Of a stretch of DNA of 64,000 bases, positions 4,631 to 53,808 are shown in pieces; the stretch's first letter is position 1; the number at the start of each line of letters is the position of its first letter. Both the position numbers and the translations under genes were made by a program. The stretch lies in assembly GCF_055900595.2 (NCBI RefSeq), contig NZ_CM148325.1; one strand, written 5' to 3'. The notes under the pieces are model-generated. The model did no database searches. It was not told the origin of the DNA and saw only the letters and a list, made by a program, of their open reading frames with translations.

Positions 4631-5954
4631 ACCTGCGCATTTATTACTGGTCGATGACGATCCAGGATTGCTGAAACTGCTTGGTCTGCGTCTGACCAGC
4701 GAAGGTTATAGCGTGGTTACGGCGGAAAGTGGAGCTGAAGGATTGCGGATACTGAATCGTGAAAAAGTAGATTTAGTCATCAGCGATCTGCGGATGGATG
4801 AAATGGATGGTATGCAACTGTTTGCCGAAATCCAGAAAGTGCAGCCAGGTATGCCAGTAATCATCCTCACCGCGCATGGTTCCATTCCCGATGCCGTTGC
4901 CGCGACACAGCAGGGCGTGTTCAGTTTCCTCACCAAGCCTGTCGATAAAGACGCGCTGTATCAGGCAATTGACGATGCGCTGGAGCAATCAGCCCCCACT
5001 ACCGACGAACGCTGGCGCGAGGCGATTGTCACCCGCAGCCCGCTGATGCTGCGTTTGCTGGAACAGGCGAGGCTGGTGGCGCAGTCAGATGTTAGCGTTT
5101 TGATTAACGGTCAGAGCGGTACCGGGAAAGAGATTTTTGCCCAGGCGATCCACAACGCCAGCCCGCGCAACAGCAAACCGTTTATTGCTATTAACTGTGG
5201 CGCATTGCCCGAGCAATTGCTGGAGTCAGAGCTGTTTGGTCATGCGCGTGGCGCGTTTACTGGCGCTGTCAGCAATCGTGAAGGTTTATTCCAGGCGGCG
5301 GAAGGCGGTACGCTGTTTCTCGATGAGATTGGCGACATGCCCGCACCGTTGCAGGTCAAACTGCTACGCGTGTTGCAGGAGCGCAAAGTGCGCCCGCTGG
5401 GCAGCAACCGCGATATTGATATCGACGTGCGGATTATTTCCGCCACTCACCGTGACCTGCCAAAGGCGATGGCGCGCGGGGAATTCCGTGAAGATCTCTA
5501 CTATCGCCTCAACGTTGTCAGTCTGAAAATTCCGGCATTGGCGGAGCGCACAGAAGACATTCCGCTACTGGCAAACCACTTATTGCGCCAGGCGGCAGAG
5601 CGACATAAACCGTTTGTCCGCGCATTCTCCACCGATGCAATGAAACGACTGATGACCGCGAGCTGGCCGGGTAATGTGCGCCAGTTGGTCAACGTGATTG
5701 AACAGTGCGTGGCGCTAACATCATCTCCGGTGATTAGTGATGCGTTAGTCGAGCAGGCGCTGGAGGGCGAAAATACGGCTCTGCCAACCTTTGTTGAGGC
5801 GCGTAATCAGTTTGAACTCAACTACTTGCGTAAGCTGCTGCAAATCACCAAAGGGAATGTCACCCACGCGGCGAGAATGGCGGGGCGCAACCGGACAGAA
5901 TTTTATAAACTGCTTTCCCGACACGAGCTGGATGCAAACGATTTCAAGGAATGA
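4620..5954 (+). CDS. glrR: sigma54-dependent response regulator GlrR (QseF)
   Basis: 444 aa from the ATG at 4620; receiver domain, AAA+ sigma54-activator motifs (GESGTGKE, GAFTGA) and C-terminal HTH; overlaps the qseG stop by 11 nt. Confidence 0.92.
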
Positions 5955-6396: not shown

Positions 6397-7587
6397 TCAC
6401 AGCACTTTATGCGGGCCAAAGCATTCGTAATGAATGTTTTCCTGTTTCACACCCAGGTCCACTAACTGTTTCGCGGCAAACTGCATGAAGCCAACCGGGC
6501 CGCAGAGATAGAACTGCATTGTCGGATCGCTGAACGCACCTTCCAGTTTGCTCAAATCCATCAGACCTTCGCTATCAAACTGACCTTTAGCGCGATCGGC
6601 TTCGCTTGGCTGACGATACCAGGTGTGCGCGGTAAAGCGCGGCAGTGCTTGCCCCAGTTCCTTAACTTCATCGGCAAAGGCGTGAACATCGCCATTTTCT
6701 GCCGCATGGAACCAGTTCACTTGTGCGGTGTGGCCTGCTTTTGCCAGCGTGTCGAGCATTGCCAGCATTGGCGTCTGGCCGACACCGGCAGAGATTAACG
6801 TCACTGGTGTGTCATCTGCGACAGCCATAAAGAAATCACCTGCCGGAGCGACCAGTTTCACGACATCGCCAACATTGGCGTGATTGTGCAGCCAGTTGGA
6901 TACCTGCCCGCCATCTTCGCGTTTCACCGCAATACGATAGCCTTTGCCATCCGGTTTGCGAGTCAAAGAGTACTGACGAATTTCCTGATGCGGGAAACCT
7001 TCCGGCTTCAGCCAGACGCCGAGATATTGCCCCGGACGGTATTCTGCCACTGCGCCACCGTCGACCGGCTCCAGTTCGAAGCTGGTGATAAGCGCGCTGC
7101 GCGGTGTTTTAGCCACAATGCGGAAATCGCGAGTACCTTCCCAGCCACCGGCTTTGCTGGCGTTTTCGTTATAGATTTCCGCCTCGCGATTGATAAATAC
7201 ATTAGCCAGTACGCCATAGGCTTTACCCCACGCGTCCAGCACTTCCTGGCCCGGGCTGAACATTTCGTCCAGCGTCGCCAACAGGTGTTCGCCGACAATG
7301 TTGTACTGTTCCGGTTTGATCTGGAAACTGGTGTGCTTCTGGGCGATTTTTTCTACCGCTGGCAGCAGCGCAGGCAGGTTTTCAATATTACTGGCGTAGG
7401 CGGCAATAGCGTTAAACAGGGCTTCACGTTGATCGCCATTACGCTGGTTACTCATGTTAAAAATTTCTTTGAGTTCTGGGTTATGAGTAAACATACGGTC
7501 GTAGAAATGGGCGGTTAACTTTGGCCCTGTTTCCACCAGTAAAGGGATGGTGGCTTTTACTGTAGCGATGGTTTGAGCGTCAAGCAT
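6397..7587 (-). CDS. hmp: flavohaemoglobin (nitric oxide dioxygenase)
   Basis: 396 aa starting [17 protein letters not shown]; globin domain plus FAD/NAD reductase domain; AAGGAAG ribosome-binding site; the ORF-track start at 7608 adds seven residues with no support. Confidence 0.93.
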
Positions 7588-7599
7588 ATGGTCTTCCTT

Positions 7600-7636
7600 T
7601 TTTTGCATCTTAATTGATGTATCTCAAATGCATCTT
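7600..7636 (-). promoter_or_regulatory. NsrR operator(s) in the hmp promoter
   Basis: Minus strand reads AAGATGCATTTGAGATACATCAA, close to the NsrR inverted repeat, with an adjacent AAGATGCAAAAA half-site. Confidence 0.65.
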
Positions 7637-7781
7637 ATAAAAAATAGCCCTGCAATGTAAATGGTTCTTTGGTGTTTTTCAGAAAGAATGTGATGAAGTG
7701 AAAAATTTGCATCACAAACCTGAAAAGAAATCCGTTTACGGTTGCAAGCTCTTTATTCTCCAAAGCCTTGCGCAGCCTGAA

Positions 7782-7797
7782 GGTAATCGTTTGCGTA
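7782..7797 (+). promoter_or_regulatory. putative PurR box upstream of glyA
   Basis: aggtaatCGTTTGCGTaaat matches the right half of the PurR palindrome ACGCAAACGTTTGCGT. Confidence 0.4.
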
Positions 7798-7914
7798 AAT
7801 TCCTTTGTCAAGACCTGTTATCGCACAATGATTCGGTTATACTGTTCGCCGTTGTCCAACAGGACCGCCTATAAAGGCCGAAAATTTTATTGTTAGCTGA
7901 GTCAGGAGATGCGG

Positions 7915-9168
7915 ATGTTAAAGCGTGAAATGAACATTGCCGATTATGATGCCGAACTGTGGCAGGCTATGGAGCAGGAAAAAGTACGTCAGGAAGAGCA
8001 CATCGAACTGATCGCCTCCGAAAACTACACCAGCCCGCGCGTAATGCAGGCGCAGGGGTCTCAGCTGACCAACAAATATGCTGAAGGTTATCCGGGCAAA
8101 CGCTACTACGGCGGTTGCGAGTATGTTGATATCGTTGAACAACTGGCGATCGATCGCGCGAAAGAACTGTTCGGCGCTGACTACGCTAACGTCCAGCCGC
8201 ACTCCGGCTCCCAGGCGAACTTTGCGGTGTACACCGCGCTGCTGGAACCCGGCGACACCGTTCTGGGTATGAACCTGGCGCATGGCGGTCACCTGACTCA
8301 CGGTTCTCCGGTTAACTTCTCCGGTAAACTGTACAACATCGTTCCTTACGGTATCGATGCTACCGGTCATATCGACTACGCCGATCTGGAAAAACAAGCC
8401 AAAGAACACAAGCCGAAAATGATCATCGGTGGCTTCTCTGCATATTCCGGCGTGGTTGACTGGGCGAAAATGCGTGAAATCGCTGACAGCATCGGTGCTT
8501 ACCTGTTCGTTGATATGGCGCACGTTGCGGGACTGGTCGCTGCTGGCGTCTACCCGAACCCGGTTCCTCATGCTCACGTAGTGACTACCACCACTCACAA
8601 AACCCTGGCGGGTCCGCGCGGCGGCCTGATCCTGGCGAAAGGCGGTAGCGAAGAACTGTACAAAAAACTGAACTCTGCCGTTTTCCCTGGTGGTCAGGGC
8701 GGCCCGTTGATGCACGTAATCGCTGGTAAAGCGGTTGCTCTGAAAGAAGCGATGGAACCTGAGTTCAAAACTTACCAACAGCAGGTCGCGAAAAACGCTA
8801 AAGCGATGGTAGAAGTATTCCTGGAGCGCGGCTACAAAGTGGTTTCCGGCGGTACTGATAACCACCTGTTCCTGGTTGATCTGGTTGATAAAAACCTGAC
8901 CGGTAAAGAAGCTGACGCCGCTCTGGGCCGTGCTAACATCACCGTCAACAAAAACAGCGTACCGAACGATCCGAAGAGCCCGTTTGTAACCTCCGGTATT
9001 CGCGTGGGTACTCCGGCGATTACACGTCGTGGCTTTAAAGAAGCCGAAGCGAAAGAACTGGCTGGCTGGATGTGTGACGTGCTGGACAGCATCAATGATG
9101 AAGCCGTTATCGAGCGCATCAAAGGTAAAGTTCTCGACATCTGCGCACGTTACCCGGTTTACGCATAA
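7915..9168 (+). CDS. glyA: serine hydroxymethyltransferase
   Basis: 417 aa from the ATG at 7915, 6 nt after AGGAG; PLP-lysine motif [14 protein letters not shown]. Confidence 0.96.
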
Positions 9169-9202: not shown

Positions 9203-9306
9203 TTCATGCCGGATGCGGCGTGAACGCCTTATCCGGCCTACAAATTATTGCAAATTCAAGATATTGCAATCTCCGTGTAGGCCTGATAAGCGTAGCGCAT
9301 CAGGCA
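9203..9306. repeat. REP cluster (two inverted REP units) between glyA and yphH
   Basis: gccggatgcggcgtgaacgccttatccggcctac and gtaggcctgataagcgtagcgcatcaggc. Confidence 0.8.
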
Positions 9307-9365
9307 ATTTTTCGTTTGTGATCATCAAGGCTTCCTTAGGGAAGCCTTGTTACGTTATCGCGCCA

Positions 9366-43800: not shown

Positions 43801-45783
43801 GGTGAATTGCGCGTCATGGCACAAGCATGGACGGCAGATGATTTCGGTAGCAACGAAAGCAAAGTGGTTGTTGCCGCACCGGTGATAGCAGAACTGAATA
43901 TGCCGCGCTTTATGGCCAGCGGTGACACCTCACGTCTGACGCTGGATATCACTAATCTTACCGATAAACCGCAAAAACTGAACGTTGCTCTGACCGCCAG
44001 TGGCTTGCTTGAACTGGTTAGCGATTCACCCGCAGCCGTTGAATTAGCGCCGGGCGTGCGAACCACGCTGTTTATCCCGGTGCGAGCATTGCCGGGTTAT
44101 GGTGATGGTGAAATTCAGGCCACTATTAGCGGGTTAGCGTTACCGGGCGAAACCGTTGCCGATCAGCATAAGCAGTGGAAAATGGGTGTCCGTCCGGCAT
44201 TTCCGGCACAAACCGTCAATTACGGTACGGCGTTGCAGCCTGGTGAGACATGGGCGATTCCAGCTGATGGATTGCAAAACTTCTCGCCTGTTACGCTGGA
44301 AGGGCAATTGTTGTTGAGCGGCAAAGCACCGTTGAATATTGCACGTTATATCAAAGAGTTAAAAGCGTATCCGTACGGTTGTCTGGAGCAAACCGCCAGC
44401 GGCCTGTTCCCGTCACTTTACACCAACGCAGCCCAACTGCAGGCGTTGGGAATCAAAGGCGACAGTGATGAGAAGCGCCGTGCGGCAGTCGATATCGGCA
44501 TTTCTCGTTTACTGCAAATGCAACGTGATAACGGTGGCTTTGCGCTGTGGGATAAAAACGGTGATGAAGAGTACTGGCTGACGGCTTACGTGATGGATTT
44601 CCTGGTCCGCGCAGGTGAGCAGGGTTACAGCGTGCCGACAGAAGCCATTAACCGGGGGAATGAGCGTCTACTGCGCTATTTACAAGATCCGGGCATGATG
44701 TCGATTCCGTATGCGGATAATCTCAAAGCCAGTAAATTCGCCGTACAGTCTTACGCTGCGCTGGTGCTGGCCCGTCAGCAAAAGGCACCGCTGGGTGCGC
44801 TGCGTGAAATCTGGGAGCATCGTGCCGATGCTGCGTCTGGATTACCGCTGCTGCAACTTGGCGTTGCGCTGAAAACCATGGGCGATGCAACGCGTGGTGA
44901 AGAAGCGATTGTGCTGGCGCTGAAAACGCCGCGCAATAGTGATGAGCGGATATGGCTGGGTGATTACGGTAGTCCACTGCGCGACAACGCATTGATGCTC
45001 TCCTTGCTGGAAGAGAACAAATTGCTATCCGATGAGCAGTACCCTCTGCTGAACACACTTTCGCAGCAGGCGTTCGGTGAACGCTGGTTATCAACTCAGG
45101 AAAGTAACGCGCTGTTCCTGGCTGCCCGTACGATTCAGGATTTACCGGGCAAATGGCAGGCGCAAACGTCTTTCTCTGCTGAGCTGCTGACAGGTGAGAA
45201 AGCGCAAACCAGCAATCTGAATAGCGATCAACTTGCCACCTTACAGGTGACCAACAGTGGCGATCAGCCGTTATGGCTGCGTGTGGATGCCAGCGGTTAT
45301 CCGCAATCCGCCCCTTTACCGGCGAGCAATGTGCTGCAAATCGAGCGCCATATTCTTGGCACTGACGGTAAGAGCAAATCGCTGGATTCGTTACGTAGCG
45401 GCGATCTGGTACTGGTCTGGTTGCAGGTCAAAGCCAGTAACAGCGTGCCGGATGCTTTGGTCGTTGATTTACTGCCTGCTGGCCTGGAACTGGAAAACCA
45501 GAACCTGGCTAACGGCAGCGCCAGCCTGGAGCAAAGTGGTAGCGAAGTGCAAAACCTACTCAGTCAAATGCAACAAGCGAACATTAAGCATATTGAGTTT
45601 CGTGACGATCGCTTTGTGGCGGCGGTTGCCGTTGATGAATATCAACCAGTCACGCTGGTGTATCTGGCGCGGGCGGTAACGCCGGGAACATACAATGTTC
45701 CGCAACCAATGGTGGAATCGATGTATGTTCCCCACTGGCGGGCGACTGGCGCGGCTGAAGATCTGTTGATTGTCAGACCGTAA
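40822..45783 (+). CDS. yfhM: alpha-2-macroglobulin family lipoprotein
   Basis: 1653 aa; lipobox LALAGC; thioester motif CLEQ at about aa 1187. Confidence 0.93.
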   Translation: MKKLRVAACMLMLALAGCDNNDNAPTAVKKDAPSEVTKAASSENASSAKLSAPERQKLAQQSAGKALTLLDLSEVQLDGAATLVLTFSIPLDPDQDFSRVIHVVDKKSGKVDGAWELSDNLKELRLRHLEPKRDLIVTIGKEVKALNNATFSKDYEKTITTRDIQPSVGFASRGSLLPGKVIEGLPVMALNVNNVDVNFFRVKPESLPAFISQWEYRNSLANWQSDKLLQMADLVYTGRFDLNPARNTREKLLLPLGDIKPLQQAGVYLAVMNQAGRYDYSNPATLFTLSDIGVSAHRYHNRLDIFTQSLGNGAAQQGVEVSLLNEKGQTLTQATSDAQGHVQLENDKNAALLLARKDGQTTLLDLKLPALDLAEFNIAGAPGYNKQFFMFGPRDLYRPGETVILNGLLRDADGKALPDQPIKLDVIKPDGQVLRSVVSQPENGLYHFTWPLDSNAATGMWHIRANTGDNQYRMWDFHVEDFMPERMALNLTGEKTPLTPKDEVKFSVVGYYLYGAPANGNTLQGQLFLRPLREAVSALPGFEFGDIAAENLSRTLDEVQLTLDDKGRGEVSTESQWKETHSPLQVIFQGSLLESGGRPVTRRAEQAIWPADALPGIRPQFASKSVYDYRTDSTVKQPIVDEGSNAAFDIVYSDAQGVKKAVSGLQVRLIRERRDYYWNWSEDEGWQSQFDQKDLIENEQTLDLQADETGKVSFPVEWGAYRLEVKAPNEAVSSVRFWAGYSWQDNSDGSGAVRPDRVTLKLDKASYRPGDTIKLHIAAPTAGKGYAMVESSEGPLWWQEIDVPAQGLDLTIPVDKTWNRHDLYLSTLVVRPGDKSRSATPKRAVGVLHLPLGDENRRLDLALETPAKIRPNQPLTVKIKASNKNGEMPKQVNVLVSAVDSGVLNITDYVTPDPWQAFFGQKRYGADIYDIYGQVIEGQGRLAALRFGGDGDELKRGGKPPVNHVNIVAQQALPVTLNEQGEGTVTLPIGDFNGELRVMAQAWTADDFGSNESKVVVAAPVIAELNMPRFMASGDTSRLTLDITNLTDKPQKLNVALTASGLLELVSDSPAAVELAPGVRTTLFIPVRALPGYGDGEIQATISGLALPGETVADQHKQWKMGVRPAFPAQTVNYGTALQPGETWAIPADGLQNFSPVTLEGQLLLSGKAPLNIARYIKELKAYPYGCLEQTASGLFPSLYTNAAQLQALGIKGDSDEKRRAAVDIGISRLLQMQRDNGGFALWDKNGDEEYWLTAYVMDFLVRAGEQGYSVPTEAINRGNERLLRYLQDPGMMSIPYADNLKASKFAVQSYAALVLARQQKAPLGALREIWEHRADAASGLPLLQLGVALKTMGDATRGEEAIVLALKTPRNSDERIWLGDYGSPLRDNALMLSLLEENKLLSDEQYPLLNTLSQQAFGERWLSTQESNALFLAARTIQDLPGKWQAQTSFSAELLTGEKAQTSNLNSDQLATLQVTNSGDQPLWLRVDASGYPQSAPLPASNVLQIERHILGTDGKSKSLDSLRSGDLVLVWLQVKASNSVPDALVVDLLPAGLELENQNLANGSASLEQSGSEVQNLLSQMQQANIKHIEFRDDRFVAAVAVDEYQPVTLVYLARAVTPGTYNVPQPMVESMYVPHWRATGAAEDLLIVRP

Positions 45784-48096: not shown

Positions 48097-48244
48097 TCTG
48101 TTTTGCTCATATTTGTTGCTTAAACTCGTTTTATTTTAAAAAAATGTTACCTTCATCAATAGTCAACGGCCCTGTTGCTCATTATAATCCGCGCCATCTC
48201 GTACGCTGGTACAGACAACAACAGAATAATTTACAGAGGTAAAA

Positions 48245-52533: not shown

Positions 52534-53808
52534 GTGGCAAAAAACATTCAAGCCATTCGCGGCATGAACGATTACCTGCCTGGCGAAACGGCCATCTGGC
52601 AGCGCATTGAAGGCACACTGAAAAACGTGCTCGGCAGCTACGGTTACAGTGAAATCCGCTTGCCGATTGTAGAGCAGACCCCGCTATTCAAACGTGCGAT
52701 TGGTGAAGTCACCGACGTGGTTGAAAAAGAGATGTACACCTTTGAGGATCGCAATGGCGACAGCCTGACTCTGCGCCCTGAAGGGACGGCGGGCTGTGTA
52801 CGCGCCGGCATCGAGCATGGTCTTCTGTACAATCAGGAACAGCGTCTATGGTATATCGGGCCGATGTTCCGTCACGAGCGTCCGCAGAAAGGGCGTTATC
52901 GTCAGTTCCACCAGTTGGGCTGCGAAGTTTTCGGTCTACAAGGTCCTGATATCGACGCTGAACTGATTATGCTCACCGCCCGCTGGTGGCGTGCGCTGGG
53001 TATCTCTGAACACGTAACTCTTGAGCTGAACTCTATCGGTTCGCTGGAAGCACGCGCCAATTATCGCGATGCGCTGGTTGCATTCCTTGAGCAGCATAAA
53101 GAAAAGCTGGACGAAGACTGCAAACGCCGCATGTACACTAACCCGCTGCGCGTGCTGGATTCCAAAAATCCGGAAGTGCAGGCCCTTCTCAACGACGCCC
53201 CAGCATTAGGTGACTATCTTGACGAGGAATCTCGTGAGCACTTTGCTGGTCTGTGCAAACTGCTGGAGAGCGCGGGTATCGCTTACACCGTAAACCAGCG
53301 TCTGGTGCGTGGTCTGGATTACTATAACCGTACTGTTTTTGAGTGGGTGACTAACAGCCTCGGTTCCCAGGGCACCGTGTGCGCAGGCGGTCGTTATGAC
53401 GGTCTGGTGGAACAACTGGGTGGTCGTGCAACACCGGCAGTCGGTTTCGCGATGGGCCTCGAACGTCTTGTATTGTTAGTTCAGGCCGTTAATCCGGAAT
53501 TTAAAGCCGATCCTGTTGTCGATATATATCTGGTGGCTTCAGGTGCTGACACACAATCTGCGGCTATGGCATTAGCAGAGCGTTTGCGTGATGAATTACC
53601 GGGCGTGAAACTGATGACCAACCACGGCGGCGGCAACTTTAAGAAGCAGTTTGCCCGTGCTGATAAATGGGGCGCCCGCGTTGCTGTGGTGCTGGGTGAG
53701 TCTGAAGTGGCTAACGGCACAGCAGTAGTGAAGGATTTGCGCTCTGGTGAGCAAACGGCAGTTGCGCAGGATAGCGTAGCCGCGCATTTGCGCACGTTAC
53801 TGGGTTAA
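52534..53808 (+). CDS. hisS: histidine--tRNA ligase
   Basis: 424 aa from a GTG start; class II aminoacyl-tRNA synthetase motifs. Confidence 0.95.

Follow-up and report, generated by a model that had tools for sequence, protein, structure and literature searches.

The flavohaemoglobin Hmp, an NO dioxygenase, is a virulence factor and the chief enzyme with which enteric bacteria detoxify NO under aerobic conditions. Serine hydroxymethyltransferase, encoded by glyA, provides the one-carbon units needed to make purines, thymidylate and methionine. The control logic of the hmp-glyA pair, which involves NsrR, FNR, MetR and PurR, has been the subject of experiments since the 1990s and is curated in RegulonDB. 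The NsrR operator of E. coli hmp has reportedly also been described by Bodenmiller and Spiro in 2006 and by Partridge and colleagues in 2009. The glyA PurR operator is likewise said to have been described by Steiert and colleagues in 1990 and 1992, and the MetR sites of the region are attributed to Lorenz and Stauffer, in 1995 and 1996, and to Membrillo-Hernandez and colleagues, in 1998.

NsrR, which carries an NO-sensitive Fe-S cluster, is known from the literature as the main repressor of hmp, and FNR is also described as repressing this gene. The hmp NsrR site was predicted and aligned across enterobacteria by Rodionov (2005). Chromatin immunoprecipitation of NsrR in strain CFT073 (Mehta et al. 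2015, PMC5320621) gave a 3.79-fold enriched ChIP-seq peak, 34 bp away from where hmp starts; this is a modest enrichment (3.8-fold) compared with 9.7-fold at ytfE and 12-fold at hcp, and hmp is also among the K-12 NsrR ChIP-chip targets. A predicted FNR site at hmp, together with earlier evidence of FNR binding, is mentioned in PMC3688515, but hmp was not detected by FNR ChIP-seq in that work. On the glyA side, PurR ChIP-chip gave peaks both with and without adenine, with log2 enrichments of 2.08 and 1.13, respectively (Cho et al. 2011, PMC3159470), and RegulonDB grades the glyA PurR site as 'confirmed' on the basis of footprinting, site mutation and ChIP (PMC3548332). Two MetR sites are reported in the hmp-glyA intergenic region (PMC5002191). 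Reviews and comparative papers describe MetR with homocysteine as an activator of glyA and state that MetR also controls hmp, and a comparative study assigned both genes to the MetR regulon in Enterobacteriales.

The divergent hmp-glyA region

We analysed a 64-kb stretch of E. coli DNA, hereafter the window. From the sequence and the list of open reading frames, the hmp ATG lies at 7587-7585 on the minus strand, where it opens a 396-residue flavohaemoglobin reading frame, and the ATG of glyA, whose product is serine hydroxymethyltransferase, lies at 7915 on the plus strand. The interval 7588-7914 is thus exactly the intergenic region of the two divergent genes, 327 bp long, as the first-pass annotation of this DNA had described it. 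The RefSeq annotation of a 99.96%-identical strain agrees: it shows these same genes, with glnB, glrR, qseG, glrK and purL to the left of hmp, and no feature within the 327-bp gap. At a threshold of at least 95% identity, the gap is present in one copy in 5425 of 5426 complete E. coli genomes. An Rfam scan of 7300-8200 revealed no known RNA family, only a meaningless mir-67 match (E = 0.42).

In order to compare this region between genera, we searched with a degenerate pattern covering the first 15 hmp codons and retrieved 80 Enterobacteriaceae loci. The whole intergenic region was held by 72 of them, and in all 72 a divergent glyA was found at a distance of 272-333 bp. The alignment comprises 73 sequences, with a median identity to the window of 0.75 and a mean per-base conservation of 0.76. 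At closer range, three divergent E. coli strains (98.5-99.1% identity) showed no polymorphism in the NsrR, PurR, MetR or FNR sites described below.

These data make us nearly certain that 7588-7914 is the textbook divergent control region, with two separate promoters placed back to back and under largely separate controls. The observation made in the first-pass annotation is confirmed, and its interpretation is supported as essentially right. The sites that it named are real, but each had already been published letter for letter. The result is thus a rediscovery from raw sequence, in which a first reading recognised real operators, and not new biology. The comparison adds a few small points: the NsrR operator of hmp is at its weakest in Escherichia, the FNR box and the extra NsrR-like half-site are restricted to particular lineages, and some strongly conserved stretches have no assigned factor.

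The NsrR operator and the hmp promoter

A promoter scan found a sole promoter-like site on the hmp strand, TTTACA-18-TAAGAT (7661-7632). The putative -35 hexamer TTTACA (7656-7661, minus strand) has a conservation of 1.0 and is separated by an 18-bp spacer from the putative -10 hexamer TAAGAT (7632-7637, minus strand), with a conservation of 0.99. Judging from the hexamers and their conservation, transcription of hmp would start near 7625. The leader ends with a conserved ribosome-binding site, AAGGAAGA (7592-7599, minus strand), 4 nt upstream of the ATG.

The NsrR operator occupies 7614-7636, where the plus strand reads TTGATGTATCTCAAATGCATCTT and its reverse complement AAGATGCATTTGAGATACATCAA. 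On the hmp strand it is organized as an 11-1-11 imperfect inverted repeat, AAGATGCATTT G AGATACATCAA, which spans the -10 hexamer and the probable transcription start. We scored it with a matrix built from 25 published sites (PMC5320621, Table 4), leaving out the tested site. The 23-mer reached 18.8 bits and ranked first in the window, ahead of a runner-up at 16.4 bits, and such a score was attained anywhere in only 3 of 200 shuffled windows. The promoter-proximal half-site AAGATGCATTT (7626-7636, minus strand), which overlaps the -10 hexamer by 5 bp, is the top 11-mer among the 127,980 of the window and has a mean conservation of 0.96. The two arms agree at 7 of 11 positions. Since they share only 4-bp exact runs, symmetry was judged by the matrices; a repeat finder run over the region reported no inverted repeat. 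The inverted repeat announced by the first-pass annotation is an imperfect one. Elsewhere in the window, an NsrR-like site at 48126-48148 is very A/T-rich and was set aside as a probable chance match.

The operator is the same element as that of E. coli K-12 and CFT073, seen in another E. coli strain: the 23-bp sequence is identical and lies at the same 26 bp from the hmp ATG, and AAGATGCAAAA flanks it in both cases, with 19 bp between this half-site and the start codon, so that no difference separates them (PMC5320621). Table 4 of that study lists the 23-mer verbatim (hmp, strand +) with a PatSer ln(P) of -18.22, for a cut-off of -14.28, and its Table 2 assigns to the glyA/hmp peak the half-site AAGATGCATTT, 44 bp from the start codon, with an ln P of -15.25. 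A matrix scan had been proposed as the check that could refute the sites; the NsrR operator and the PurR operator analysed below both rank first, and the published ln(P) of the former passes its cut-off, so the scan brings no refutation. The operators of E. coli ytfE and hcp share the 11-1-11 architecture placed over the core promoter, and each half of the ytfE site has the sequence AAGATGCATTT (PMC5320621, Table 2). The hmp operator differs from them in being far less symmetric, 7/11 as against a perfect palindrome at ytfE, and in having a distal arm that also reads as an FNR box.

All 73 regions hold an NsrR site of at least 18.8 bits (range 18.8-31.9 bits), whose distance from the hmp ATG is 23-38 bp and mostly 25-27 bp; the Enterobacter/Klebsiella version is ATGATGTATTTTAAATGCATCTT. 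With 18.8 bits, where the median is 26.6, the Escherichia operator is the weakest of these 73 orthologues, a consequence of its having the most FNR-like distal arm.

This arrangement suggests how hmp would be repressed. The operator covers its sigma-70 promoter (-35 at 7661-7656, -10 at 7637-7632, start around 7625) from the last 5 bp of the -10 hexamer to about +12, so that binding should exclude RNA polymerase. NsrR in its holo form, with a [4Fe-4S] cluster, would thus block the polymerase on the operator; NO would damage the cluster, NsrR would leave and hmp would be switched on. In this scheme, and in its extension to glyA below, the sequence, matrix ranks, conservation and verbatim table matches come from the present analysis, and in vivo binding and regulatory effects from the literature; the exact transcription starts and the steric mechanism are what we infer.

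An FNR-type box, TTGATgtatCTCAA (7614-7627, plus strand), which departs from TTGAT-N4-ATCAA at one position, coincides with the distal NsrR arm and sits over the probable hmp start, which is a repressing position. Matches of this stringency occur near chance frequency, with 5 in the window for 2.2 expected. Among the 73 regions, a match with 0-1 mismatch was found only in Escherichia, Citrobacter and one Salmonella, in agreement with Rodionov (2005), who noted conservation of the hmp FNR site in E. coli and Salmonella alone. The match by itself is weak evidence; the literature supports binding, although FNR ChIP-seq was negative at hmp. In Escherichia we take the distal NsrR arm to serve as an FNR box too, which would place a second NO- and O2-sensitive repressor over the same stretch.

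Closer to hmp, 7600-7611 reads TTTTTGCATCTT on the plus strand and AAGATGCAAAAA in reverse complement, and contains the weak NsrR-like half-site AAGATGCAAAA (7601-7611, minus strand) in the hmp 5' leader. The first-pass annotation had taken this adjacent half-site as part of the NsrR control. The string is indeed present, and Table 2 of PMC5320621 lists it, at 19 bp from the start codon, as a 'possible NsrR site' with a score of 5.00 and an ln(P) of -7.08, which passes the lax listing cut-off of that study. However, it scores 7.6 bits with the NsrR matrix and ranks 90th among the 127,980 11-mers of the window, and 370 of 5000 shuffles (7.4%) of the local 26-bp segment yield an 11-mer as good. 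On its own, the score of AAGATGCAAAA is within chance. Its mean conservation is 0.49, below the regional 0.76, and among the 73 regions only those of Escherichia have the exact motif. The segment also takes part in a 9-bp exact direct repeat found by the repeat finder, TGCATCTTA, at 7604-7612 and 7629-7637. Read on the hmp strand this repeat is TAAGATGCA, so the half-site also bears a -10-like TAAGAT.

We consider it probable that AAGATGCAAAA binds no protein, and is either an incidental piece of A/T-rich leader or a place where TAAGAT, at about +14 to +19, acts as a sigma-70 pause element or weak secondary promoter. The local shuffle test is not significant, and the motif varies freely between genera next to a conserved ribosome-binding site. 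The adjoining T-run varies in length among the E. coli strains; this is one of the few polymorphisms seen between the three compared above. The exact duplication of TAAGAT together with the real -10 also favours this reading. Against it, coincidence alone is an improbable origin for a 9-bp exact repeat of the operator half at a distance of no more than 25 bp.

Alternatively, AAGATGCAAAA could function as a second NsrR site, acting cooperatively with the main operator and offsetting the drift of the Escherichia distal arm towards an FNR box. It is listed as a possible site beside a ChIP-seq peak (PMC5320621), it repeats 9 bp of the strong proximal half exactly, and single 11-bp motifs are able to bind NsrR according to Partridge (2009), as related by the papers that cite it. 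The exact motif is moreover confined to the species with the weakest operator of the 73 orthologues, and several Citrobacter species carry AAGATTCAcAT-like 11-mers of 9-10 bits at the same position. Yet this co-occurrence with a weak operator is a single evolutionary event in one genus, and the ChIP-seq resolution is too coarse to separate AAGATGCAAAA from the main site 14 bp away. Given also its rank, its chance-level score and its low conservation, we regard a working second site as somewhat unlikely; the half-site would be at most an auxiliary one of low affinity.

A broader reading links these features: the hmp operator may have been remodelled in Escherichia, with the distal arm drifting towards an FNR box, NsrR affinity lowered, and the TAAGATGCA copy 25 bp downstream serving either as an auxiliary half-site that could bring NsrR occupancy back or as a -10-like pause element. 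This reading depends on a correlation within a single genus, and we hold it to be unlikely. If true, it would describe a lineage-specific rewiring in which NsrR affinity was traded for dual NsrR/FNR control.

MetR-type sites between the two promoters

Two MetR-type sites in tandem, with centres 22 bp or about two helical turns apart, lie between the promoters. Site A, GTGAAAAATTTGCAT (7698-7712), is the nearer to hmp and has 2 mismatches to ATGAA-N5-TTCAT. Site B, CTGAAAAGAAATCCG (7720-7734), has 4 mismatches, with one good half (TGAA) and one degenerate half. A match to the consensus is not distinctive alone: the TGAA-N5-TTCA core with 1 mismatch occurs 24 times in the window for 27.6 expected, and 27 15-mers of the window have at most 2 mismatches to ATGAA-N5-TTCAT. 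As the core is found at chance frequency, conservation was used to judge these sites. Site A is found with 1-3 mismatches at the orthologous position in all 73 regions, with a conservation of 0.87, and site B has a conservation of 0.96, its 15-mer being identical in 48 of the 73. Together they form a 37-bp block, 7698-7734, that is among the best-conserved parts of the region.

They share with the sites known from the literature the arrangement of two tandem TGAA-N5-TTCA-like sites between the genes, conserved in Enterobacteriaceae, although the footprinted boundaries may lie a few bases away from those given here, 7698-7712 and 7720-7734. The consensus and the literature statement suggest that 7720-7734, too, belongs to MetR.

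The first-pass annotation had overlooked both these sites, which answer to the one known shared regulator, and the FNR box over the distal NsrR arm. It had presented the region as integrating nitric-oxide and purine/one-carbon signals. Both signals are present, but integration is an overstatement, as they act on separate promoters about 160 bp apart. Because the regulator that the genes share is MetR with homocysteine, and not NsrR or PurR, any integration is looser than had been implied. In the scheme that we propose, the two sites for MetR, a LysR-type regulator, would be the only known element common to both promoters: MetR would activate glyA when homocysteine is present, and would favour hmp when homocysteine is depleted, for instance by nitrosation.

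The PurR operator and the glyA promoter

The glyA side carries a complete 16-bp PurR operator, AGGTAATCGTTTGCGT (7781-7796, plus strand), which is attested by matrix score, published tables and conservation. PurR operators were recognized as 16-bp imperfect palindromes of the form ACGNAAACGTTTGCNT, with a central CG and a score like that of accepted sites. The matrix was built from 27 ChIP-chip sites (PMC3159470, Table 1), again leaving out the tested site. AGGTAATCGTTTGCGT scored 21.1 bits, within the 12.0-25.0 bits of the training sites, and ranked first in the window; the best score in 20 shuffled windows was 18.7 bits. Two further PurR-like sequences are at or below the shuffle maxima and are probably due to chance: 53574-53589 lies within the hisS coding sequence, and 59832-59847 apparently also lies within coding sequence. 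The PurR box of guaB, as an internal positive control, is absent from the 64-kb window, since the window departs from the reference strain after 58952, short of guaB.

Table 1 of PMC3159470 gives the same glyA 16-mer verbatim, at the same 119-134 bp from the ATG, and no difference from the E. coli operator was found. The first-pass annotation had called this element a half-box at 7782-7797, about 120 bp upstream of glyA. The assignment to PurR and the distance are correct, but the operator is complete and its coordinates were off by 1 bp. The half-box label reflects a good match to the consensus in the right half alone; the left half, AGGTAATCG, nevertheless falls inside the range seen among accepted PurR sites, for instance those of tsx (ACGTAATCG) and purB (AGGTAACCG) (PMC3159470). 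In the comparative set, a PurR site of at least 17.2 bits is present in all 73 regions, its end being 95-120 bp, and mostly 115-119 bp, away from the glyA ATG; its right half, CGTTTGCGT, is invariant (1.0) and its left half variable (0.88).

For the glyA promoter, the best candidate -10 hexamer is TATACT (7838-7843, plus strand), with a conservation of 0.998; its position would fit a leader of about 65 nt, and transcription would start near 7850. Upstream of it lies an invariant block, TTTGTCAAGACCTGTTATC (7803-7822, plus strand), which probably contains more than the -35 hexamer alone; the latter would be CTGTTA or CCTGTT, at a spacing of 17-18 bp. The promoter scan had picked TTGTCA (7805-7810), but at 27 bp from TATACT it is too far away to be its -35. 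Translation signals were read directly from the sequence: the ribosome-binding site AGGAG (7904-7908, plus strand) stands 6 nt before the ATG, and 7890-7914 is almost invariant among the 73 regions. Two conserved stretches, 7803-7822 and 7751-7770, have no assignable factor.

With a start near 7850, the positions would be near -62 for the PurR box and near -123 and -145 for the MetR-like sites. With hypoxanthine or guanine as its ligand, PurR would then bind about 60 bp upstream of the start and cause a modest drop in transcription, thereby tying one-carbon supply to purine sufficiency.

The position of the MetR-like sites relative to TATACT leaves room for another layout, in which glyA would have a second, MetR-dependent promoter with a -10 hexamer TATTCT at 7754-7759 and a start around 7766. 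The MetR sites would then fall at about -61 and -39, which fits a LysR-type layout much better than -145 and -123, and PurR would form a downstream roadblock at about +15 to +30, a mode known at purB and purR (PMC3159470). The conservation across genera of CTTTATTC (7751-7758) and of CCTTG (7766-7770) is in line with this idea. On the other hand, the layout is deduced from spacing alone, the promoter scan found no promoter there and the -35 would be very poor. Since TATACT is invariant, and since just one glyA promoter is described in the literature, we judge a second promoter to be very unlikely and retain TATACT as the -10 hexamer of glyA.

In the glyA leader, two small hairpins can form, at 7854-7865 and 7867-7878. 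Indels disturb the comparison of the second one. In the first, 9 of 39 distinct leaders show a double change, from U-A to C-G, that keeps the pairing, and 93% of cells are paired.

Conserved blocks and potential leader hairpins on the glyA side

The stretch at 7803-7822, TTTGTCAAGACCTGTTATC, is unchanged in nearly all of the 73 aligned enterobacterial hmp-glyA intergenic regions. Such invariance exceeds the requirement of a -35 hexamer. The distance between the near-consensus hexamer TTGTCA and the -10 element TATACT (7838-7843), which is itself invariant, is 27 bp; this rules out TTGTCA as the -35 of the TATACT promoter. Another conserved stretch, CTTTATTCtcCAAAgCCTTG at 7751-7770, is located between the MetR-like sites (7698-7712 and 7720-7734) and the PurR box (7781-7796). 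Speculatively, it could hold a second glyA promoter, with a -10-like TATTCT at 7754-7759 and a predicted start at about 7766. This start would put the MetR sites at -61 and -39, the classical positions for LysR-type regulators, and the PurR box would lie downstream of it.

Two short potential hairpins occur at 7854-7878 in the glyA 5' leader, the first being GUCC-AACA-GGAC and the second GCCU-AUAA-AGGC; no Rfam family matched them. Among 39 distinct enterobacterial leaders, 93% of the cells of the first hairpin are paired, and a double change from U-A to C-G retains pairing in 9 of the 39. For the second hairpin, the comparison of enterobacterial leaders is disturbed by indels.

The hmp promoter and the start codons of both genes

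The spacer of the hmp promoter contains ATAGCCCTG at 7644-7652, which is kept across genera. Control of hmp by NarP in enterobacteria is mentioned by Rodionov 2005. The T-run at 7598-7604, which separates the ribosome-binding site of hmp from the weak NsrR-like half-site, varies in length among E. coli strains, with T7 in the window and in O157, and T8 in ST131 and AR_0372. Longer hmp and glyA frames appear in the mechanical ORF list because in-frame ATGs precede the annotated starts, for hmp at 7606-7608 on the minus strand and for glyA at 7909-7911 on the plus strand. Both of these ATGs lack a ribosome-binding site at a suitable distance, whereas the annotated start codons of hmp (7587) and glyA (7915) each have one.

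Other regulator-like matches and architecture of the window

The second-best match to the NsrR matrix in the window (16.4 bits) is the 23-mer TCGTTTTATTTTAAAAAAATGTT at 48126-48148, which precedes ndk by about 100 bp and falls between pbpC and ndk. This 23-mer is highly A/T-rich and has no entry in the published NsrR site tables that we compared (PMC5320621), and is therefore probably due to chance. The fifth-best PurR-matrix match in the window, TTGAAATCGTTTGCAT at 5932-5947 (minus strand, 13.2 bits), falls within the final glrR codons and precedes the start codon (ATG) of glnB by 68-83 bp. The glnB gene has been reported as a target of PurR, but the PurR ChIP-chip study did not detect it (PMC3159470). 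Towards the 3' end of the yfhM reading frame, which encodes an alpha-2-macroglobulin, there is a perfect FNR consensus, TTGATGAATATCAA at 45632-45645.

Collinearity with strain Z0117EC0005, which is otherwise 99.97% identical, is lost over 58953-64000. At this point Z0117EC0005 holds adhesin/SinH-like pseudogene fragments, and the window thus seems to have a longer version, which may be intact. Finally, a repeat of about 104 bp is present in two copies of inverted orientation sharing 88% identity, one directly downstream of glyA (9206-9309) and the other directly upstream of pepB, in the sseB-pepB intergenic region (38359-38462); these copies probably belong to the REP/BIME type of intergenic repeats.
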